From assembly GCA_048939245.1 (NCBI GenBank), contig JBHLPR010000046.1, positions 1 through 17,959 on the forward strand: a DNA stretch of 17,959 nt. Reading direction: 5' to 3'. The DNA comes from Promethearchaeota archaeon (GTDB taxonomy: Archaea; Asgardarchaeota; Hermodarchaeia; Hermodarchaeales; Hermodarchaeaceae). The position numbers and the translations under genes were made by a program. Numbering within the stretch: the first letter of the stretch is position 1; every line of letters begins with the position of its first letter. The notes under the pieces are model-generated. The model ran no database searches, was not told where the DNA came from, and saw only the letters and a program-made list of their open reading frames with translations. This document shows, piece after piece, positions 466-17,952 of this stretch.

Positions 466-1851
466 ATGGAAGATTTAGCTGAAATTGCTATTCAATCGGC
501 ATTAGATGCAGGAGCGGACTTTGCAGATATCCGAATCGAAGAAACTTATCAAACCAAATTTGAGATAAGCAATGGCATTTCAAAGACTTCGTTAGGTGCG
601 CAATTAAGAGGTGCGGGGATTCGTGCGTTCGTTGATGGTGCATGGGCGTTTGCACATGTAAGCGATTTTACTTCAAATGGAATGAAAAAAACGGGTCAGC
701 AAGTTGCTAAAACAGCCTTGGCGATTCGTGATCGTGTTGCTGAAAAATTTGACCTTTCAGGGCCTTGTTTTCAGGATAAAATTCGAATGAAAGTGAAGCA
801 GAAGTTTATTGATGTGCCTTTGGAGGAAAAAATGGCGCTTGTCCGTATGTTAGATGATGAGGTTCATGATGTTGATCGTCGGATAGCAAATACACAAACC
901 ATCTACCGTGATCTCTCAACCCAGTTGTATATTGCCAATTCGTTTGGTACAAGTGTTTGGGTGGAAAATTCTTTACCACGTATACTGTTGAGAATTACCT
1001 CTAAGGAAAATGGAATTAGGCAACGTGCTTGGGGTGAAACGGCTGGACGAGGGGGCTTCGAAGTGCTCGATGAAATTGCCCTCTGCAAGATCGCTCGTGA
1101 ATCTGCGAATCTAGCAATCGATTTGCTCAATTCAAAAACTGTACCCGGTGGAATCTACGATGTCATTCTTGATCCACGGTTAAATGCAGCAATGGTGCAT
1201 GAAGCCTTTGGGCACCCTTGTGAAGCGGATCACTGGGTTGCTCAAAATTCTGTATTAGAAGGATTACTCGGTCATCAAGTTGGTCCTGAATTTTTGTCTA
1301 TAGTTGATGACCCCACAATGCCTAGAGAGCGCGGATCTTTTGAATACGATTGGGAGGGAACTAAAACTTTGAAACGTTCACTTGTGAAAGCGGGAATTCT
1401 CACAGAGCTAATGCATAATCTTGAAACCGCTACGCGAATGGAAATGAAGCCTAATGGTGCAGCACGCTGTCAGTCTTTTATGTATCCGCCAATACCCCGA
1501 ATGAGCAACACCTACATGGAACCTGGTGATTGGGATCTCGACGAGTTGATTTTAGACACAAAAGAAGGTATTTTGCTTTGCGATTGGAATTACGGGTACA
1601 CAGATCATACTAAAGGGCAATTCATGTTCCAAGCCAGTTATGGTTATTTGATCAAGAAAGGCGAAAAGACCCAGATCATACGTGATGTGTCATTAGCTGG
1701 ACAAATCGTTGAGTTTTTGCATAAAATCGATGCTTTGGGAAACAAGCTAGGAATGTCTGCTGGAACTTGTGGAAAGGGAAATCAACTGGTTCCTGATAAT
1801 TCTGGAGGTCCTCATGCTAGGGTTCTACAAGTTCCTGTGGGAGGGATGTAA
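466..1851 (+). CDS. tldD: TldD family metalloprotease (catalytic subunit)
   Basis: 461 aa. N-terminal 'GADFADIRIE', metal-binding HEAFGH (HExxGH), 'DDPT', 'YDWEG', 'PRMSNTYM' and the conserved C-terminal Cys in 'TCGKGNQLVP'. SD AAGGAGTG overlaps the upstream stop. Confidence 0.95.
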   Translation: MEDLAEIAIQSALDAGADFADIRIEETYQTKFEISNGISKTSLGAQLRGAGIRAFVDGAWAFAHVSDFTSNGMKKTGQQVAKTALAIRDRVAEKFDLSGPCFQDKIRMKVKQKFIDVPLEEKMALVRMLDDEVHDVDRRIANTQTIYRDLSTQLYIANSFGTSVWVENSLPRILLRITSKENGIRQRAWGETAGRGGFEVLDEIALCKIARESANLAIDLLNSKTVPGGIYDVILDPRLNAAMVHEAFGHPCEADHWVAQNSVLEGLLGHQVGPEFLSIVDDPTMPRERGSFEYDWEGTKTLKRSLVKAGILTELMHNLETATRMEMKPNGAARCQSFMYPPIPRMSNTYMEPGDWDLDELILDTKEGILLCDWNYGYTDHTKGQFMFQASYGYLIKKGEKTQIIRDVSLAGQIVEFLHKIDALGNKLGMSAGTCGKGNQLVPDNSGGPHARVLQVPVGGM

Positions 1852-3201
1852 ATGAAACATGAACTATTAGACTTAGGAGACAAGGTCATACGCGATGCTG
1901 AAAAATTGGGCGCCCAGCAGGCCGAAGCTTATCTGACATCAAGGAAGCAAATTAGTGTTCAAGTTGAAAGGGGGGCAATTAAGTCTGCTGAGGAAAAACA
2001 TGATTTAGGTTGTGCTATTAGAGCAGTTTTGGACAAGAAATTAGGATTTGCATATACATCTACAATTAATCAAGAGGATATTCAAGCAAGAACTAGAGAT
2101 GCTATTAATTTAGCCAAAGTGTCTCTTCCTGACATCGAATTTCACAGTTTTCCTGAACACAGTAATGTCTACCGTGAAGTGTCAGGAATTTACGATAATA
2201 AATTATCCACACTAACGTCAGAACAGGCAATAGCGCTCATCTTTCGGGCAGTAGATTCATGTCGAGCTCATCTGAAAAAAAAGCGGGTCGTGATTCAAGG
2301 TGGACTTACAATTCAATCAAAAGAGACAGTAATTATCAATTCATTGGGTGTCTCAGGAATCTATCGGGACACACATATTGATCTCTCAGTGGATCCTACA
2401 ATAAAAGAAGATGGTCGCCAAGCATCGAGTTTTGAGTTCCAAATTTCACGAAGCCTCTCAAAGGCTAATCCTGAATGGGTTGGCGAAAGTGCAGCTAGAA
2501 ATGCTCAACGGCTGTGGCACCCAAAGACAATCCAAGAACGTCAACTTCCCGTAATCTTTTCTCCTATGGCTATCGACTTTCTCTTCAGGATTGGATTTGG
2601 AGACGCCTTTAATGCCGAAGAAGTCCAAATGAAGCGTTCATTTTTAGCGGATTTCGCAAATACCTCGATTGCTCCTGAGTTTTTCAATATCAGTGATAAT
2701 GCACTGCTGTCTAAAGGAAATAGGTCTAGACCGTTTGATGCTGAAGGTGTTCCCTCTCAAAATAATAAAATCATCTCAAAAGGGGTGCTAATGCATTTTC
2801 TTCACAACTCCTATACTGCAAATAAAGCTCAAGTTCCGAATACAGGTAACGCTAGTCGTGAATCCTATCAAAACTTTCCCACAATTTCTCCTACAAACTT
2901 GGTCATTACTCCAGGTCGTGGAACTCTTGAGGACCTAATCTCTCAAATTGGGAAGGGCATTCTTTGCCGAGTTACGTTTGACAAACCTAACATTAGCACT
3001 GGGGATTTCAGTGCCCTTATCATGGAGGGCTTTTATTTCGATAAAGGTGAAATTAAACATCCTGTAAAGAACACTCTCATTGGGATCAATATGCGCGATT
3101 TCTTTCAGAAAATTACGCTCATAGGGGCTGACGCTCGCTCTCTAAATACCGCTATAACGCCGTCTGTAGCCATCGAATCTGCGAAAATCACTTCTGGATA
3201 A
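1852..3201 (+). CDS. pmbA: PmbA/TldE family protein (non-catalytic partner of TldD)
   Basis: 449 aa. 'GAQQAEAY', 'SRPFDAEGVP', 'LHNSYTA', 'TGNASR', 'TGDFS'; no HExxGH. ATG directly follows the tldD TAA (TAAATG), suggesting coupling. Confidence 0.93.
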   Translation: MKHELLDLGDKVIRDAEKLGAQQAEAYLTSRKQISVQVERGAIKSAEEKHDLGCAIRAVLDKKLGFAYTSTINQEDIQARTRDAINLAKVSLPDIEFHSFPEHSNVYREVSGIYDNKLSTLTSEQAIALIFRAVDSCRAHLKKKRVVIQGGLTIQSKETVIINSLGVSGIYRDTHIDLSVDPTIKEDGRQASSFEFQISRSLSKANPEWVGESAARNAQRLWHPKTIQERQLPVIFSPMAIDFLFRIGFGDAFNAEEVQMKRSFLADFANTSIAPEFFNISDNALLSKGNRSRPFDAEGVPSQNNKIISKGVLMHFLHNSYTANKAQVPNTGNASRESYQNFPTISPTNLVITPGRGTLEDLISQIGKGILCRVTFDKPNISTGDFSALIMEGFYFDKGEIKHPVKNTLIGINMRDFFQKITLIGADARSLNTAITPSVAIESAKITSG

Positions 3202-3217: not shown

Positions 3218-4129
3218 TCATTGATTTGTTGCAGTGTAATAGTAGATTGGTGTGTATTTTGCTTGGTTCGGGGTAAAGGTATCTTTACAATTCACGCATC
3301 CAAGTAGGTAATCTGGGTGTTTCGGATGGCTCTGACATGTGACACAATGGAAGACCTTACCGAGTGTGCGATACGTTCCTGGTGACAAGGAGATTTTGCA
3401 CTCGGGGCAGACAAGCCCTGAGGAAGAAGAGAAGGCTTCAATAAAGGCGGTGTGGTTGCAAATGAAATGTTCCAAGGCGATACCGGATTCTAAGGTTGGA
3501 AGGCCACATTTGGGACAGTAAGCATGTAAGAGAACTTGGTGGCTACGGCATTTTGGACATGTTATTATATTACCACAAATTCGACCTTGTATCAGACCAG
3601 CCGACATCATGGTGGTTAAGAGCCCATTGGTGTCCTCTGTTGATTTGCCCATAATTTCTTCAGCTAAAGGATATCTGTACCCATATTTTAGAGACCAAGC
3701 TGGGCGTAAGGGTTCTTGAGACCGTTGGAGCTCTTCTAAGAGCTCTTGGACTTCAGATTTAGCACATAAGGTTTTTCGAATTTGATCATTAGTTTTTGAA
3801 ACAATCGCGTTATAAATCTCTAAGAGCTTTGCTTGGTCAATTTTTCCGTCATGGTTGAAGTTGCTGAGTACTTGTTCCATTGGTTCCCCAAAGTCTTTCT
3901 GTCGTTCTTTTGGGGATAATAGAATGCAGTATAAATAGGGTGGATTTAGGTAGGTCACCCACGTTCGGTCCTTGACTGTGATGCCCGTGAAGCCTTTGGC
4001 TATCATTGTTCTCGTTGTGAATAGGACAATAGTTTCATCTTGAGATACTTCAAGTGTACTTGGGATAACAAATTTGATGATTGGACCCATTTTTGCATCG
4101 AATTCAAGAAGAACAGTACCACGTGGGAT
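3218..4129 (-). CDS. uDENN/longin-like N-terminal domain fused to a TackOD1-like multi-zinc-ribbon output domain
   Basis: The listed ORF 3218..4090 extends 13 codons upstream in frame (IPRGTVLLEFDAK-MGPIIKFVIP), restoring an 'FDxxxGP' longin/uDENN first strand-turn. Proposed ATC start at 4129 after GAGGGGGGG. The C-terminal half has 'GYRYP', a helical segment 'LLTTMMSAGLI', then CPKC, CPKC, EHxxC, CPEC, CVTC and CVNC, the pattern of the archaeal TackOD1 domain. Confidence 0.7.
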   Translation of the reverse strand: MPRGTVLLEFDAKMGPIIKFVIPSTLEVSQDETIVLFTTRTMIAKGFTGITVKDRTWVTYLNPPYLYCILLSPKERQKDFGEPMEQVLSNFNHDGKIDQAKLLEIYNAIVSKTNDQIRKTLCAKSEVQELLEELQRSQEPLRPAWSLKYGYRYPLAEEIMGKSTEDTNGLLTTMMSAGLIQGRICGNIITCPKCRSHQVLLHAYCPKCGLPTLESGIALEHFICNHTAFIEAFSSSSGLVCPECKISLSPGTYRTLGKVFHCVTCQSHPKHPDYLLGCVNCKDTFTPNQAKYTPIYYYTATNQ

Positions 4130-4607: not shown

Positions 4608-6011
4608 GTGTTGCTTAAATCTATCAGTCACCCACTTCGACCTATCATTGAGAAAATCTTGAAACGTGCAAAACCTGAGAGTGAAAGACCAGAGTTGAAA
4701 CGGCTTCTAACAAACATTTTACTTTATATTAAAAGAGTGGAGCTTGGCGAATTAACACCAGAAGAAAAGCGTTTTCCGGGCGTACCGCGCTTCCATTTTC
4801 TAGCCTTAGCACCTTCAACCCAACTCGCATCAATATTCTATGATCAAATACGAATTATCCATGACTATAATATACAATCCGCATCGAGAATTCGAGAAAT
4901 ACTGATACATCGACGGGGCGGGTTTTGGCCACAGGTCTACTCATCGAATCAAGTCGAAATTTTAGAGTTATTAAGTAATAATCCCACACTTAACGTATCA
5001 CAGCTTAGCCACATAACTGGGAGATCTCGTCCAACCCTTACAAAGATTCTGAATCAGTTACGTAATAGCTTTGGTCTTCGGCAAGGCTATACAGTAAATA
5101 CGAGTAAGTTTAAGCTAGTTAGATTCAGTGTTGTTTTTCGCACTAAATCCTTTGAAGCGTCACAGGCATTAGAAAAATGGGTTCTGGATGATAAACCGCC
5201 ATTTATTGGAAATATTATTTTTGATTTAAACTATCGAAATGGGTTCATCGTCTATTTGGTACCTTTACAGCAACGAGCGATTCGACTTTTTTACAAACGA
5301 GTGGATTGGCTAACCCGTAAGTTCTTTCAACACGTTCAGGTTCACCGTATATTCGCGTTGTTCTGGAAAGCACGGTTTGATGTTTATGATACAGAAAATG
5401 GTCGTTGGCAAATCCCGGAGATTCTCAAAAATTATCCGCATTCGTTTTTCAATGAATCTATCGCCTCAAATAAGGTGGATTTTCAGCGTTGTATTAGAAT
5501 GGAAGCACCGCTTCGATTTTCCCGCATTGATTATCTTCTAGCTAATTCCGATGTTATTGGTGGGTCTGCAATCCGAGGAAAACGTGAATTTCTCAGACGT
5601 TTTGATTATCATTTATCTGCGAATGTAGTGTGGTCTCGTTTCAAGCATCTGAAAGAAAATGGAGCTGTTGTTCCCTATGTCGTATTTGCAGGCGCTGGTC
5701 TAGAAGATTTTGTTTGCCTTTGTCTTTACTGTGATGCAGAGGTTCAAAGATTTATCAAATCGTTTGCAATGTTTCTACCATTCTCCTACGTCTATATTAC
5801 TGAGAAGGGTGTTGGATTGTTTTTCAAACGTCCTTTAGGATGGAGTGCAATTGTTAATAGGATTATCAAAGAAACACCCAAGTTATCGGGTGTAGATGAT
5901 TTTATGGTTGTGCATCAAGAAAGCCAATCAGGAATACACTTAGGTTACGAAATATACTCTCGATGGAATGAAAAAAGACAATATTGGGAGTTTAAAGAAA
6001 AGGAGATCTGA
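4608..6011 (+). CDS. Large regulator with two tandem Lrp/AsnC-like HTH + ligand-binding units (paralog 1)
   Basis: 467 aa. HTH 'ILELLSNNPTLNVSQLSHITGRSRPTLTKILNQL' followed by Lrp-type linker 'VNTSKFKL'. Second degenerate unit 'FSRIDYLLA...LSANVVWSRFKHLKENGAV...AGL'. Each half ends in a related aromatic motif (YDTENGRW / WNEKRQYW). Confidence 0.7.
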   Translation: MLLKSISHPLRPIIEKILKRAKPESERPELKRLLTNILLYIKRVELGELTPEEKRFPGVPRFHFLALAPSTQLASIFYDQIRIIHDYNIQSASRIREILIHRRGGFWPQVYSSNQVEILELLSNNPTLNVSQLSHITGRSRPTLTKILNQLRNSFGLRQGYTVNTSKFKLVRFSVVFRTKSFEASQALEKWVLDDKPPFIGNIIFDLNYRNGFIVYLVPLQQRAIRLFYKRVDWLTRKFFQHVQVHRIFALFWKARFDVYDTENGRWQIPEILKNYPHSFFNESIASNKVDFQRCIRMEAPLRFSRIDYLLANSDVIGGSAIRGKREFLRRFDYHLSANVVWSRFKHLKENGAVVPYVVFAGAGLEDFVCLCLYCDAEVQRFIKSFAMFLPFSYVYITEKGVGLFFKRPLGWSAIVNRIIKETPKLSGVDDFMVVHQESQSGIHLGYEIYSRWNEKRQYWEFKEKEI

Positions 6012-6048
6012 AAAACTATTTTCTCTTCTAAAGATGAGTTGAAACCGA

Positions 6049-6110
6049 ATACTAGCACTCAGTGGTGGGCATTCTAGTAATAGAACGCCCACTTTCTGAA
6101 TGCCTAGTGT
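6049..6110 (-). terminator. Long imperfect stem-loop directly after the stop codon of the 92-aa gene, between convergent genes
   Basis: Minus-strand RNA: ACTAG-g-CATTCAG-aaa-GTGGGCGTTCTA-[TTAC]-TAGAATGCCCAC-ca-CTGAGTG-CTAGT. Two of the stem positions pair as G·U only on the minus strand. Confidence 0.55.
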
Positions 6111-6389
6111 CTAATCCGGGCAGTCAATTCTCAGCCTTACTCCCCCGTGTTCAGATGGCCGTATGGAAATACGTTCCGGCGAATGAATGTTGAAATCTCG
6201 TGCGAGTACTCGTAAGAACAAACGGCAAAGTGCAGCCAATTGGCGAGATGCCTCCCACTGGGAAAATTGATTGACGTGAATGTATTGTGTCTTCTCTTCA
6301 CACAGGTTGAAACTTTGATCAGACGTCTCAACAGGAGACATCTTAAACTGTGCTATGTCGACCGTATCGTTTTCGATTGGTTCGGTCAT
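6111..6389 (-). CDS. Hypothetical 92-aa protein
   Basis: Fills an intergenic gap. SD GGTGGA upstream of the ATG, TATA-like TTATATTA at ~6497-6490 (minus strand), and hairpins in both UTRs. No family recognised. Confidence 0.55.
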   Translation of the reverse strand: MTEPIENDTVDIAQFKMSPVETSDQSFNLCEEKTQYIHVNQFSQWEASRQLAALCRLFLRVLARDFNIHSPERISIRPSEHGGVRLRIDCPD

Positions 6390-6695: not shown

Positions 6696-8141
6696 ATGTT
6701 AAAAGAAGGCACCCTGGGATTACTTGCTGCAGGTCTTGGGATGGCTGATTATCGTAACATTCTAGAAGTGCGGAGCCAGCGAATCCTTGCTGCAATAGGT
6801 TCAACTACTGACCGTGAAAAAGCAACGCCCTTCTTAGAAGACATAATACGCTATGTTGTTGCAGCCTTTGAAGGCGAAGCTACATTTCAAGAAGGAGTAC
6901 AATCATTCAAGCCACTAGTGCCGATTCTTAATGGACCACTCTCGTATGAAATTGCCACTGAACTCGACTACCGGTTACGGCTTCTTGCGGAATACCAACT
7001 CCCTGTATTTGAGCGAATTTTTGGTTTCTTAACATCCGGGTTGAATACCCTTACATCTGCAACTTTAAGACGTCACCATATTTCATTCATTAAACTAGTA
7101 AACGAAAACCCGAATCAGGGCGTAGTTACCTTATCTCGGCAATTGAAGGTTAGCCCGCGTACTGTGAGAAAGAATCAACAAAATTTATCCAACCAGTATG
7201 GCCTTCGTATTGCTGGAATTTTAGATGTCCCACGGTTTGGGCTTTCCCATTTTGGTGTGCATTTTCGTACTCGTGGAATTGATTATGCTTATAATTTTGA
7301 AAAATGGGTTCGAAACCCGTCCAATGCCCTTGAACTTTCTCCCTTTCTATTAGGCTATGGTATTAACCCCAATCATTTTGATGGCTACTGCTCCTTTTTT
7401 GTTCCCGACAGGATACATTCCTTAAAAAGAATGGAGAGAAAATTAAAATGGCTTGAACAGGAATTTTTCGAGTCGATGACCATTCTGAAAATAATGGGTA
7501 CTTTTTCGAATGTAAGCTTTGATTCTTATGATTATGTTTCTCAGAGTTGGTCAATATCTGCCGATTTAAGTACAGAGGGTACTCTTAGTTTCATCAAGGA
7601 ACGCGGTCCTCAATTTTCATTACCTCGGGGAGTTCATTATTCAACAAAAATTAGTCGATTTCATGAGGTTGATTGGCTTCTTGCCCTCATGTATTGTACC
7701 GGGTTTCTTCAGAAAGCTGAACGTGTTACCACTCTGGCACGGTACGGATTTCCTTTAGCTGAAAAAACGGTTTGGGCTCATGAGCGTAGGCTCATCAGAA
7801 GTCGAACTCTCCTGCCAACAATCATGTTTAGTAATTTAGCCTTTGAAGACATTATCTGCATTATAATTCAGTGCGAAGAGCAGTTAGTGGCCAATTTAGT
7901 TCAAGTAGTAATACAATATGCCTACAGCAGGATCCATCCAACAAATGAGGGTGTTATTTTTTTCATCGGAGTTCCAACCGGAGGTTCAGGTCTAATAAAT
8001 CACTTAACACGCACTCTTGTCCAGGAGATAGGTATCCACCAATTTACTGTCCTCCGGCTGAAACAGGACCTTCCCCAAATGCCCTCGTTAAAGACTTATG
8101 CCCTATGGGATAACGAAAGTCAGCAGTGGAAAGGTGAATAG
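6696..8141 (+). CDS. Large regulator with two tandem Lrp/AsnC-like units (paralog 2); start may be ATG 6741
   Basis: HTH 'FIKLVNENPNQGVVTLSRQLKVSPRTVRKNQQNL' and linker 'LDVPRFGL'. Collinear similarity to 4608..6011 (FRT, EKWV, PF, FDxYD...W, 'D.LLA', 'VW', 'W....Q.W'). Confidence 0.7.
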   Translation: MLKEGTLGLLAAGLGMADYRNILEVRSQRILAAIGSTTDREKATPFLEDIIRYVVAAFEGEATFQEGVQSFKPLVPILNGPLSYEIATELDYRLRLLAEYQLPVFERIFGFLTSGLNTLTSATLRRHHISFIKLVNENPNQGVVTLSRQLKVSPRTVRKNQQNLSNQYGLRIAGILDVPRFGLSHFGVHFRTRGIDYAYNFEKWVRNPSNALELSPFLLGYGINPNHFDGYCSFFVPDRIHSLKRMERKLKWLEQEFFESMTILKIMGTFSNVSFDSYDYVSQSWSISADLSTEGTLSFIKERGPQFSLPRGVHYSTKISRFHEVDWLLALMYCTGFLQKAERVTTLARYGFPLAEKTVWAHERRLIRSRTLLPTIMFSNLAFEDIICIIIQCEEQLVANLVQVVIQYAYSRIHPTNEGVIFFIGVPTGGSGLINHLTRTLVQEIGIHQFTVLRLKQDLPQMPSLKTYALWDNESQQWKGE

Positions 8142-9158: not shown

Positions 9159-9515
9159 TATTGTAGTCTCCTCTGTTATTCGCTGTTCGAGTCCTATTTG
9201 AACAAAACTTCACAGTTATAGGGGTTTGAACCGAAATAGCCTCAAATATCCTTGTTAGCCGGTAGGTTCGGAATTTCGTACAAACCTCACTAGTCATTGT
9301 TCTTTTTCGAACAAATTGGTGCGAAAACCGGAACGAAAGGTTCATTCAAAGAGAGAGGCCAAGTCCTCGAACATTTCTTCTTCAATAGATCAGATTACGA
9401 ACTGCTGCACAAGGATGATGTTGCGACGGAGTTATGTTGCCAACTCTCAATTTTTTCGAAAAATGGATAAAATACGCTTCATAAGAAGTACTCATCGCTT
9501 CAATTTGTGATTACC

Positions 9516-9815
9516 ATGAATGAGTTCAATTACTCTCAATATGATATTGCAACATATAGCAAAAAACTCCAATTATCATTAAAAACCCAAAAACGAACTA
9601 AAACAATTATCATGGATGCACAGCAAACGGGATTAACGACGCGGAAGACGCCAGAGAGTCTTATTGCCGCAGCAATATATATAGCGTGTATCTTAGAAGA
9701 TGAAAGACGAACGCAGAGGCAAATTAGTCAAGCTACTGGTGTTTCCCCTCACACGATTCAGATCCGTTATAAGCAGCTTGTGCATGACCTTAAGATTCAG
9801 TCAGCTTCCTCATAA
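9516..9815 (+). CDS. Stand-alone TFB/TFIIB C-terminal cyclin-repeat protein (99 aa)
   Basis: 'GLTTRKTPESLIAAAIYIACILEDERRTQRQISQATGVSPHTIQIRYKQL' matches the second cyclin repeat and HTH of TFB. No Zn ribbon or first repeat; in-frame TAA at 9468. ATG 9516 follows TGTGA (track start is GTG 9507). Confidence 0.82.
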   Translation: MNEFNYSQYDIATYSKKLQLSLKTQKRTKTIIMDAQQTGLTTRKTPESLIAAAIYIACILEDERRTQRQISQATGVSPHTIQIRYKQLVHDLKIQSASS

Positions 9816-15892: not shown

Positions 15893-16044
15893 TACGCTTC
15901 AGAGGGTGTTCAGTATCTCGGAATGATTTCGTGAAACCTTCCGATGTGCAAAAACCTTTTTCTGCCGCCTTCCTAAACCTTGATTGAAGCCAAGTGACAG
16001 ATTTCAAATAGTTCATCTCTGTCTTAATCGGAAGGTGACTAATT

Positions 16045-17061
16045 ATCCCTCGGGGCCTCGTCGTCAGTCAATGGGACACCAAAGAAGGACTCAAGATAAT
16101 ATCCAAATATCCTGCATCCTTAAACTTCAATGTCACTGATTTATCTCTGATGTATTATAACTGTGCTCCCCAAGACAACGGTACATCCTTCCAAACCTTC
16201 CCCTCTAATGATGTAAAGGAACGTGCGGCTGTAGCCTGTGCTCGGAAAAAACGAGAAGGAGCAGAAGACGATATTTGCATCACTGTCTTATTGACAAGCG
16301 AGGAAGAAGGCAGTGCCTATGAAGAAATTCTTAACAATACCTTACAACGGCTCATGAAAACAAACGTGAAACCTGCAAACCGAAAACGCCGATACCGACA
16401 AATTCTTTCCGATAGCTACAGAAAAATCGAACGACGAGGTGGATCTCGAGATCAGTCGCTATGCCCCTATATGTATGAAAGACCCATTAAAGATGGCGAA
16501 ATAACCTCCTACTGTCGAGTCGTCAAGAAGCAATGCTACCTGAACATCTACAAGATGCCCGGTTATCCTCAATGCCCCCGATATATCCGACGGCAACGCC
16601 AAATCCAACTAGCCAACGCCCGGCAACTCGTTCGCGCTGGAATACGTCGTATCCTTGAAGACTATGATCACGAAAGACAAAAGTTCAAAGATAAGAAACC
16701 TGGCCTCTGGAGTGAACCTGTTCATGCAATTCTCGACCGGCTCTTCGCCATCCTTGAAGTGGAACCCGCCACCGAAGAATACGCCCACAACGTCGTTGAA
16801 TATGTCGGGAACGAAGGGCTTTTCCAAGGTCATCCCCGACCTATTATTGCTGCTTCTATCGCCTATTATAGCGCAAAACAAACCGAAGATTCAATACCCG
16901 AAAATGATATAATCGAACTTGTAGGTTGTTCACGTACTTCCCTACGTCGAAACTATCGGGAGCTGCGCAGTCTGCTTAGTTCAGATGAGAAGAAACTACC
17001 CAAACACAAACCCCGACGACGCAACAAATCTACGGAAAAAGCCATCAGTCGCGCTGAATAA
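16045..17061 (+). CDS. uDENN/longin-like domain – Cys4 cluster – TFB/TFIIB cyclin-repeat fusion protein
   Basis: The frame of listed ORF 16150..17061 is open back to TGA 16036-16038 and reads IPRGLVVSQWDTKEGLKIISKYP (longin/uDENN 'WDxxxG..I...YP'). SD GGAAGGTGA at 16030-16038, 6 nt before ATC 16045. Middle: CPY...YC...C...QCPRY. C-terminus 'GLFQGHPRPIIAASIAYYSAK...IIELVGCSRTSLRRNYREL' is a TFB cyclin repeat with HTH. Confidence 0.72.
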   Translation: MPRGLVVSQWDTKEGLKIISKYPASLNFNVTDLSLMYYNCAPQDNGTSFQTFPSNDVKERAAVACARKKREGAEDDICITVLLTSEEEGSAYEEILNNTLQRLMKTNVKPANRKRRYRQILSDSYRKIERRGGSRDQSLCPYMYERPIKDGEITSYCRVVKKQCYLNIYKMPGYPQCPRYIRRQRQIQLANARQLVRAGIRRILEDYDHERQKFKDKKPGLWSEPVHAILDRLFAILEVEPATEEYAHNVVEYVGNEGLFQGHPRPIIAASIAYYSAKQTEDSIPENDIIELVGCSRTSLRRNYRELRSLLSSDEKKLPKHKPRRRNKSTEKAISRAE

Positions 17062-17082
17062 TCATCAGGAGAAAACAAAACC

Positions 17083-17952
17083 ATGATTCACAACATTTTC
17101 ATAATGGCCCGCGATGGACGTCTCGCCTTTCATCGGCAATACTGGTCTGTCGATATCGCTGCAGAAGAGCGGCAAGAATTTCTCGCCACATACAAACACT
17201 TCGAATCTGAACTTGGTAGTCAAGTTGATTTACCCATCCATGTGAAAAACATCAAATTCATCTACGCCGATGCTGGATCCCACCTCCTTTTGGTTTTCGC
17301 GGTGGACATGAGTGACGAAGACGATAAGATCAAAGATACCTTGAAAAAAACCCGCGAACTTCTCATTAACAAATTTGGTCACGAAATCGACGCCTATATC
17401 CAAAAACCCGTGCCTCTCGGCGAAGCTTTCAAAGGCTTTGCTGCTGAACTCGACAATGTCATCGTCACCATGCTCAAAATCTGCTTACTCGGACAAGGAG
17501 GCGTCGGCAAATCTACTATGCTTAAACTCCTCACCGCCGACAGCATCCCCGGCGACTACTACCCCACAATCGCCGTCGATATCGAAACCCTTCAAGGCGT
17601 CCGATTTGGACCCTACGAACTCGCCGTCTGGGACTTCGCTGGCCAAGATCGATTCCGCTCCCTCTGGAACTATTACCTCCGCAACGCCGACGCAGTCCTC
17701 CTCGTCACCGACTCCACCCTCAAAAACGTCCTCGAAACTCGCGACATCCTCGAAATTGTGCGCAAAAACTCCCCATCCTCAATCGTCTGGGCCATCGGCA
17801 ATAAACAAGACCTCCCCGGTGCACTCGCACCAAAACTCGTCCAACGCATCCTCGGTGTCCAAGCTTACGGTCTCGTCGCCATCGACCCCCGCTATCGAGA
17901 AGTTCTCTACAAAATCATCCTAGGTGCCGTCGCAGAAGCCACTACAGATTAA
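17083..17952 (+). CDS. Longin (AP sigma/mu-like) domain fused to an Arf-like small GTPase
   Basis: N-terminus 'MIHNIFIMARDGRLAFHRQY' is typical of adaptin-type longins. G1 GQGGVGKST, G2 YYPTI, G3 WDFAGQ(DRFRSLW), G4 NKQD(LPGAL). SD AGGAG; 21 nt after the upstream stop. Confidence 0.92.
   Translation: MIHNIFIMARDGRLAFHRQYWSVDIAAEERQEFLATYKHFESELGSQVDLPIHVKNIKFIYADAGSHLLLVFAVDMSDEDDKIKDTLKKTRELLINKFGHEIDAYIQKPVPLGEAFKGFAAELDNVIVTMLKICLLGQGGVGKSTMLKLLTADSIPGDYYPTIAVDIETLQGVRFGPYELAVWDFAGQDRFRSLWNYYLRNADAVLLVTDSTLKNVLETRDILEIVRKNSPSSIVWAIGNKQDLPGALAPKLVQRILGVQAYGLVAIDPRYREVLYKIILGAVAEATTD

Follow-up and report, generated by a model that had tools for sequence, protein, structure and literature searches.

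We analyzed a stretch of 17,959 nt (here called the window) that constitutes one whole contig (JBHLPR010000046.1, assembly GCA_048939245.1; C39 in our numbering) of a 2.5-Mb, 88% complete Asgard archaeal genome. At its 3′ end lie two genes on the forward strand: gene A, whose product joins a longin domain, a four-cysteine (Cys4) module and a TFIIB-type cyclin repeat, and gene B, which encodes a longin domain joined to an Arf/Rag-like small GTPase. In relatives they are accompanied by a third gene, p3, which encodes a longin protein paralogous to A. Below, we describe the proteins, their conservation, and what they might do together.

The gene pair and the start of gene A

The open reading frame coordinates confirmed the earlier observation, made in a sequence-only reading of the window, that the two genes are co-oriented and 21 nt apart (A ends at 17061 and B starts at 17083). 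No terminator-like site was found between them on the + strand. The elements of the pair are as follows.

16030..16038, + strand: Shine-Dalgarno sequence of gene A, GGAAGGTGA, whose own TGA is the in-frame stop that ends the frame upstream
16045..17061, + strand: gene A, 338-aa longin - Cys4 - TFIIB-type cyclin repeat protein, probable AUC start
17062..17082, + strand: A/B intergenic spacer, 21 nt, containing a GGAGA-type Shine-Dalgarno sequence (caggaga)
17083..17952, + strand: gene B, 289-aa longin - Arf/Rag-like small GTPase, ATG at 17083, stop at 17950-52

The frame of gene A is open from 16039, past the TGA at 16036-38, and is closed by TAA at 17059-61; its first ATG is at 16150. At 16045 the codon is ATC, and the frame has no AUG, GUG or UUG start there. 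The sequence-only reading had nevertheless extended the protein to 16045, and comparison with 18 related loci bore this out. AGGTG was invariant in 18/18 of these loci and was followed, after 6 to 7 nt, by ATC or ATT at the position of 16045; the TGA of AGGTGA ended the gene A frame just upstream in most of them, and a nearby ATG was present in only one. Homologues keep about 35 residues 5′ of ATG 16150 (IPRGLVxSxWDxKxGL...), and these contain the most conserved longin motif of the gene A family. Across the 35 codons, differences between the window and the related loci fell on codon positions 1, 2 and 3 in the numbers 192:66:290, a coding pattern. Furthermore, the start codon of p3, ATG or TTG, falls precisely on the homologous residue (MPKGL in p3, IPRGL in gene A). 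Because of the invariant Shine-Dalgarno sequence and its spacing to ATC/ATT, the coding-like 35 codons and the p3 start, we conclude that gene A probably starts at AUC 16045.

That the deposited annotation is correct, which would make A a "cyclin family protein" of 303 aa beginning at ATG 16150 and the 35 codons before it an untranslated leader, we regard as very improbable. Public gene calls of most homologues do begin at that Met or close by, leaving out the first 35 residues, and ATC/ATT starts are rare, but the 35 codons are conserved as protein, the Shine-Dalgarno sequence precedes ATY and not 16150, and the second of the two genera that carry gene A lacks a Met at that site. Moreover, a protein starting there would have a fold without strands β1 and β2 and without the invariant WD..G motif. 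Given the conserved AUC/AUU start, public annotations thus shorten gene A and miss its longin domain.

Domain architecture of the two proteins

An AlphaFold2 model of gene A was built on 28 family sequences and had a mean predicted local distance difference test (pLDDT) score of 79. Folds were matched with Foldseek and twice with VIA-align, once independently of Foldseek, and the results concurred. Residues of gene A are numbered from the ATC. The following features were assigned.

16045..16419, + strand: gene A, NPRL2/FLCN-type longin domain, residues 1-125, a model block with pLDDT mostly 75-88
16072..16092, + strand: gene A, WDTKEGL motif of the β1-β2 loop; W-D-x-K-x-G-L is invariant in gene A and its paralogue p3
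16432..16449, + strand: gene A, RRGGSR linker; R130, R131, G132, G133 and R135 invariant; modeled as disordered, with pLDDT <50 at residues 132-138
16462..16575, + strand: gene A, four-Cys basic module, C-x16-C-x6-C-x12-C, net charge about +6, presumed metal site
16576..16692, + strand: gene A, long basic helix, residues 178-216 (helix to 213 in the model), net +6, running into the cyclin repeat
16711..16980, + strand: gene A, single five-helix TFIIB-type cyclin repeat, residues 223-312
16900..16968, + strand: gene A, helix-turn-helix (HTH)-like last two helices of the repeat, ENDIIELVGCSRTSLRRNYRELR, which rank with the best-conserved parts of the protein, with invariant columns from E286 to L307
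16990..17058, + strand: gene A, basic disordered tail, net +8, ending with a conserved RAE
17083..17472, + strand: gene B, sigma-adaptin/TRAPPC/MglB-like longin domain, residues 1-130, a model block with pLDDT 76-89
17473..17949, + strand: gene B, GTPase domain (G1 17491-17514, G3 17632-17646, G4 17800-17811)

The N-terminal domain of gene A, previously called longin-like from sequence alone, did model as a longin fold, with the topology β-β-α-β-β-β-α-α and no N-terminal helix (DSSP: E4-11, E15-22, H30-40, E46-52, E61-70, E73-82, H89-105, H110-130). NPRL2, a component of the GATOR1 complex, was among its best solved matches (Z 13.4-14.1, with 14.1 for 9o5d_D; root mean square deviation [rmsd] 2.7, 129 residues), as was a Lokiarchaeal Roadblock-Longin protein (8yqg_B, Z 13.6, rmsd 3.2, 132 residues). 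Npr2 (Z 11.8, rmsd 3.3, 127 residues), the FLCN-complex chain 6nzd_H (Z 10.8, rmsd 3.1, 128 residues) and Lst4 (Z 9.9, rmsd 3.6, 124 residues) also matched. VAMP7, Sec22, Ykt6 and sedlin gave Z values of 8.7-10.9, with the GATOR1/FLCN longins placed higher. On the model, then, this domain is an NPRL2/FLCN-type longin, in that its closest structural relatives are GATOR1/FLCN longins, which belong to the longins of GTPase-activating proteins (GAPs). The spacing of the invariant loop in gene A and p3, W-D-x-x-x-G, is that of the W33-D34...G38-P39 region of C9orf72 (PMC12290439, section 2.4), with Leu replacing Pro, and the shared loop corresponds to the WD/GP region of catalytic-pocket longins. 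Sequence profiles of the gene A and p3 N-domains matched no longin in the PDB at E≤10, so the Arg-finger positions of NPRL2 and FLCN, which may lie in the β4-β5 turn, cannot be mapped by alignment. Among the arginines of the gene A domain, R67 is at least 90% conserved and R60 is invariant, yet R60 sits at the far end of the sheet; R70-G71 of p3 is invariant only within the genomes of the gene A family, and p3 orthologues farther removed have K or Q there.

A hidden Markov model (HMM) search of the genome for longins of the gene A type returned only A, p3 and one further gene, which also lies in the window (3221-4129, − strand; frame open to 4141). The longin that it encodes is joined to an output domain, a TackOD1 zinc ribbon (Pfam 4.5e-26), and has a true F-D-x-x-x-G-P loop (IPRGTVLLEFDAKMGP...). 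There is no ATG, GTG or TTG before its conserved first strand, and its start seems to be an ATC that follows a GGTGGTGA-type Shine-Dalgarno sequence.

The four-Cys cluster that the sequence-only reading had placed ahead of the cyclin repeat was upheld: C140, C157, C164 and C177 are invariant in the 28 sequences. Residues 140-177 were modeled as two short strands with pLDDT of about 70. The cysteines are lone ones, and the two-CxxC-knuckle arrangement of a zinc ribbon was not found. We found no relatives of this module outside the family among 1.84 billion protein representatives, and the Atlas gave no lead. Together with the long helix (+6) and the tail (+8), the module (+6) forms a set of strongly basic segments around the cyclin repeat.

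The repeat itself had been read from the sequence as a TFB-type cyclin/HTH repeat, an assignment that family-wide profiles and the fold both supported. PF00382 was matched at E≤0.1 by 21/28 family members (the best with 27 bits, and one member above the cutoff), compared with 9/28 for Cyclin_C, and the family profile matched only TFB/TFIIB chains in the PDB, including TFB of P. woesei. In the fold comparison, the C-terminal domain matched P. woesei TFB (1ais_B) with Z 15.2, rmsd 2.0 over 92 residues, and human TFIIB with Z 14.5, rmsd 2.5 over 101 residues. Like the TFB/TFIIB repeat (PF00382; PDB 1AIS and 1D3U), that of gene A has five helices, and its last helices fall on TFB ...TVRNRYKEL, the Arg being retained. 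The HMM alignment placed CSRTSLRRNYREL of gene A on ...VTEVTVRNRYKEL of 1ais_B and the invariant R301 on the Arg of the TFB VTVRNRY helix. In TFIIB/TFB structures, this TFB Arg contacts BRE (TFB recognition element) DNA.

Unlike TFB/TFIIB, gene A has one repeat and is not a general transcription factor. It lacks the TFB Zn ribbon, the B-reader, the B-linker and the second cyclin repeat and has the longin at its N terminus instead; the organism's own TFB does carry an N-terminal ribbon. In structures of TFB/TFIIB with the TATA-binding protein (TBP) and DNA, the first repeat makes the main TBP contact. TBP binding by gene A cannot be assumed, because one very divergent repeat remains and the Zn ribbon, the B-reader/linker and the other repeat are absent. 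The genome also encodes five full two-repeat TFBs. A stand-alone 102-aa single TFIIB repeat is encoded elsewhere in the window (9507-9812, + strand; PF00382, 3.5e-15), and BLASTP detected no similarity between it and the gene A repeat.

For gene B, the intact G1-G4 motifs and the longin N terminus proposed from sequence were both corroborated. The motifs are intact and invariant: G1 GQGGVGKS, the switch-I Thr (T162), G3 DFAGQ with the catalytic Gln188, and G4 NKQD. In Pfam, residues 131-261 matched Roc (4.5e-21), Arf (1e-19; 71.1 bits versus a cutoff of 22.3), Ras (3.6e-18) and Gtr1_RagA (2.2e-6; 27.7 bits versus 22), and in the fold search the G domain was 27-34% identical to Arf1 chains. The AlphaFold2 model shows longin topology for the N-terminal domain, with fold matches to AP2 sigma (6owt_S, E 6.7e-6), Bet5 (2j3t_C), MglB and Mon1-Ccz1; the G domain was modeled poorly owing to a shallow alignment. 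Residues 1-98 gave a weak sigma-adaptin match in Pfam (Clat_adaptor_s, E 0.0036). The N-terminal amphipathic helix and myristoylation site of Arf were not found in gene B, its residues 1-130 being the longin, nor was the C-terminal roadblock of Rag, the protein ending about 30 residues past the G domain. Gene B is a member of a large family of Asgard proteins, about 290 aa long, to which NCBI gives the name "ADP-ribosylation factor-like," and its own genome encodes five more full-length paralogues. The longins of the two proteins are of different subtypes, that of A being NPRL2/FLCN-type and that of B sigma-adaptin/TRAPPC-type.

Conservation of the pair and the third gene, p3

When 400 Asgard genomes were searched, full-length gene A turned up in a single family, of Hermodarchaeota-type Asgard archaea, where it is present in 18/18 of the other genomes (14/14 in one genus and 4/4 in a second). 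Gene B directly followed gene A in 18/18 of the related loci, with a gap of 21-22 nt or, in the second genus, a 4-nt overlap (ATGA). The pairing that the sequence-only reading had offered for testing across relatives is therefore conserved.

In nearly all loci of sufficient length, p3 lies 3′ of gene B. It is a paralogous NPRL2-type longin protein of 430-550 aa. Residues 1-130 of p3 have about 25% identity to the gene A longin and share the invariant W-D-x-K-x-G-L loop, its middle is a very conserved domain of about 240 residues without a Pfam or PDB sequence match, and at its C terminus a Lys/Glu-rich repeat tail (KEEEKKRKEEEK...) varies in length from about 30 to 150 residues. Conservation of p3 exceeds that of gene A, with 72-91% identity over residues 1-375 across the family. 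In the genome of the window it is found on another contig, C86: the end of C39 and the start of C86 are the same 77 nt, and p3 follows on C86 beyond a 1.7-kb insertion. Its positions in this genome and in two relatives are as follows.

C86:1946-3493: p3 of the window's own genome (locus L019)
L003:8104-9594: p3 of a relative
L015:7971-9266: p3 of a relative

The insertion between gene B and p3 is missing in relatives and holds a 451-aa gene (C86 415-1770) with a C-terminal membrane anchor and a weak match to an EMC1-like beta-propeller (E 0.008). The break between C39 and C86 may reflect strain variation.

Orthologues of p3 with 30-35% identity occur in two other Asgard families that lack gene A, and there no GTPase was found within 20 kb, so the A-B-p3 arrangement is not general. 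Because of these orthologues, we take p3 to be the older of the two, gene A being a derivative specific to its lineage whose C-terminal half is new. A tree made to test whether the gene A longin arose by p3 duplication was not resolved, with gene A on a long branch. Two small, near-complete genomes of another Asgard family carry two p3 orthologues each, about 11 kb apart, which measure 361 and 363 aa and have no Lys/Glu tail; in one of the genomes (G300, contig C1) they lie at 5275-6360 (− strand) and 16965-18056 (+ strand), and the other genome is alike. One orthologue sits beside a 139-aa protein and a JAB/MPN protease and the other beside an 862-aa protein without a Pfam match.

The second genus has an additional longin-GTPase, paralogous to gene B (about 42% identical), directly 5′ of gene A, so that two GTPases and two NPRL2-type longins are encoded together in one block. 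The four copies of this upstream gene are as follows.

L015:4956-5837: upstream longin-GTPase paralogue, second genus
L016:5043-5927: upstream longin-GTPase paralogue, second genus
L017:2279-3166: upstream longin-GTPase paralogue, second genus
L018:8-874: upstream longin-GTPase paralogue, second genus

An orthologue of this gene (72% identity) is present in the genome of the window, at the very end of contig C90 (L053:3656-4513).

Conservation also extends into noncoding DNA ahead of gene A, where an alignment of 17 upstream regions revealed the following.

15909..15994, + strand: three near-invariant noncoding blocks, TTCAGTATCTCGGAATGA; GCAAAAACCTTTTTCTG; AAACCTTGATTGAAGCCAAG; candidate promoter, operator or 5′ leader

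The blocks are near-invariant across a genus in which the proteins are only 68-85% identical. A genome-wide search found each to be unique, the best near-copy falling inside a coding region, and an Rfam search of the region upstream of gene A gave no match. Block 2 (ACCTTTT) could pair with the Shine-Dalgarno sequence (GGAAGGT) over 7 bp; no covariation was seen.

The genes 5′ of gene A in the window are functionally unrelated to the pair (beta-lactamase-like, BPL_N-like, GNAT, glyoxalase and nitroreductase). Farther upstream, PmbA/TldD-family metallopeptidase genes lie in tandem at 466-3201 (+ strand; 461 and 449 aa). Two proteins of similar size are encoded at 4608-6011 (+ strand; 467 aa) and 6696-8141 (+ strand; 481 aa), on either side of an opposite-strand 92-aa orphan open reading frame; the 467-aa protein has a winged-helix match (HTH_24/MarR), and a Pfam search with the 481-aa protein gave no match.

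A possible GTPase module with a transcriptional output

We give an even chance to the following proposal: A and B open a conserved small-GTPase signaling module, in which the longin pair of A and p3 acts on or reads B and the C-terminal half of A is the output. Gene B would be the switch, its Arf/Rag-like G domain being carried on its own longin dimerization domain. A and p3 would pair through their NPRL2/FLCN-type longins, by analogy with NPRL2-NPRL3, FLCN-FNIP and SMCR8-C9orf72, and the pair would dock on the G domain of gene B and either speed GTP hydrolysis or read the nucleotide state. The C-terminal half of gene A, which probably binds nucleic acid or a basal-transcription partner, would then pass the state of the switch to gene expression. 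The direction could also be the reverse, with the Cys4 site receiving a metal or redox signal that is passed to the switch, and the conserved AUC/AUU start might hold the level of gene A low relative to that of gene B. We infer the heterodimer, the choice between a GAP and an effector role, metal binding, DNA or TBP binding and the direction of the signal; as a whole, the arrangement suggests a GTP switch wired to gene control. A heterodimer of A with p3 seems more natural than one of A with B, the pairing from which the sequence-only reading had derived a possible GTPase-to-promoter relay, because the longins of A and B differ in subtype while that of p3 is paralogous to A's, although A and B may also pair. 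The logic of an input longin plus an output domain draws on the longin-TackOD1 gene of the window and on the NPRL2-like longin fusions of Liu et al. (10.1101/2020.10.19.343400). A stricter form, in which the nucleotide state of B directly gates a TFB-derived DNA/TBP-binding domain via the NPRL2-like longin pair, with Cys4 adding a metal or redox input, we consider unlikely.

Several observations weigh against this proposal. The loop of gene A and p3 has an invariant Gly but ends in G-L where eukaryotic GAP longins have G-P, and no Arg finger can be assigned; R70 of gene A varies and R67 lies inside a strand. Fused A-B or longer forms were absent from the databases searched, which is weak evidence, and no regulon is visible in that the upstream blocks do not recur in the genome. 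With hhalign, the gene A repeat matched the TFB of its own organism only weakly (probability 21%, E 0.001). The remaining points bear on the main rival explanation, namely a pure GTPase-regulator complex with no transcription link. Here A and p3 would form a GATOR1/FLCN-like GAP or guanine nucleotide exchange factor for B, and the cyclin repeat and Cys4 module would be a protein scaffold replacing the DENN or NPRL2 C-terminal domains of the eukaryotic complexes. Protein binding is a general property of the cyclin fold, and cyclins of the cyclin-dependent kinases matched the repeat with Z of about 12-13, only about 2 Z units under TFB; the repeat is net acidic (−6) and in gene A itself falls below the PF00382 cutoff (E 0.17, 12.4 bits versus 23.6); and the Zn ribbon, B-reader and other repeat required for TFB function are absent. 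Nevertheless, the profiles matched across the family are TFIIB-specific, both in Pfam and in the PDB, the HTH-like helices and their Arg are invariant, and three strongly basic segments surround the repeat. We regard a pure regulator as possible but doubtful.

We find it distinctly improbable that gene A is instead a TFB-derived decoy or anti-factor, competing for a BRE-like site or a TFB partner under metal or redox control at Cys4, with its longin serving as a dimerization or sensor module and the GTPase only coexpressed. A single TFB repeat without the RNA-polymerase-recruiting parts and an invariant four-Cys cluster would suit such a factor, and the five full TFB paralogues and the stand-alone repeat in the genome indicate that TFB-derived parts are used freely. 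A coincidental neighbor is, however, unlikely in view of the strict A-B adjacency at translational-coupling distance in all 18 loci and of the NPRL2-type longin, whose relatives act on GTPases.

Returning to the proposed module, its nearest counterparts are GATOR1 NPRL2-NPRL3 (yeast Npr2-Npr3), FLCN-FNIP and SMCR8-C9orf72, in that the gene for a Rag/Arf-like GTPase is accompanied by genes for two longin paralogues, A and p3. It differs from them in the G-L that stands for G-P, in having no DENN, NPRL2-C or DEPDC5 partner, and in the Cys4 module and TFIIB-type repeat that make up the C-terminal half of A; in addition, the longin of gene B is N-terminal, in place of a C-terminal roadblock, and no similarity to these systems is detectable at the sequence level. 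As in Rag/Gtr, the G domain of gene B is permanently joined to a dimerization domain of the roadblock/longin superfamily and passes Gtr1_RagA, but the domain order is reversed and the G domain scores higher with Arf and Roc models. The two paralogous longin-GTPases that flank gene A in the second genus resemble the Rag heterodimer.

The sequence-only reading had not recognized the architecture as described, and this stood in part. The combination of longin, TFIIB and archaea was not found in the literature searched, and a longin-Cys4-TFB fusion is not mentioned in two studies of Asgard longin proteins that report the same building blocks and the same fusion logic (10.1101/2020.10.19.343400; PMC10933270). 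Longin-GTPases and NPRL2-like longin-output fusions, on the other hand, had already been published for Asgard archaea. Liu et al. described Rag-family GTPases fused to longin domains and many NPRL2-like longins fused to two-component-type domains (10.1101/2020.10.19.343400), and Tran et al. modeled longin-GTPase architectures (PMC10933270). In a 2025 survey, GAP longins were defined by a GP motif and an Arg finger, features that were also found in some Asgard longins (PMC12290439). In MK-D1, GTPase genes are generally not in operons with longin or roadblock genes (PMC10933270), whereas A, B and p3 form a conserved operon.

Asgard archaea have dozens of eukaryote-like small GTPases and longin/roadblock proteins; since their genes mostly lie scattered, a partner or an output can be assigned to almost none of them (PMC10933270). 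The A-B-p3 locus encodes a GTPase, two NPRL2-type longins and a plausible output together throughout a family and thus provides a defined three-protein set for testing. If the TFB-derived half acts on transcription, the set would reveal what is under the control of an archaeal "eukaryotic signature" GTPase system and how a basal-factor repeat became a signaling output. Were direct gating true, it would constitute a prokaryotic small-GTPase-to-transcription relay, an archaeal counterpart of the Rag-GATOR1/FLCN logic of nutrient signaling.

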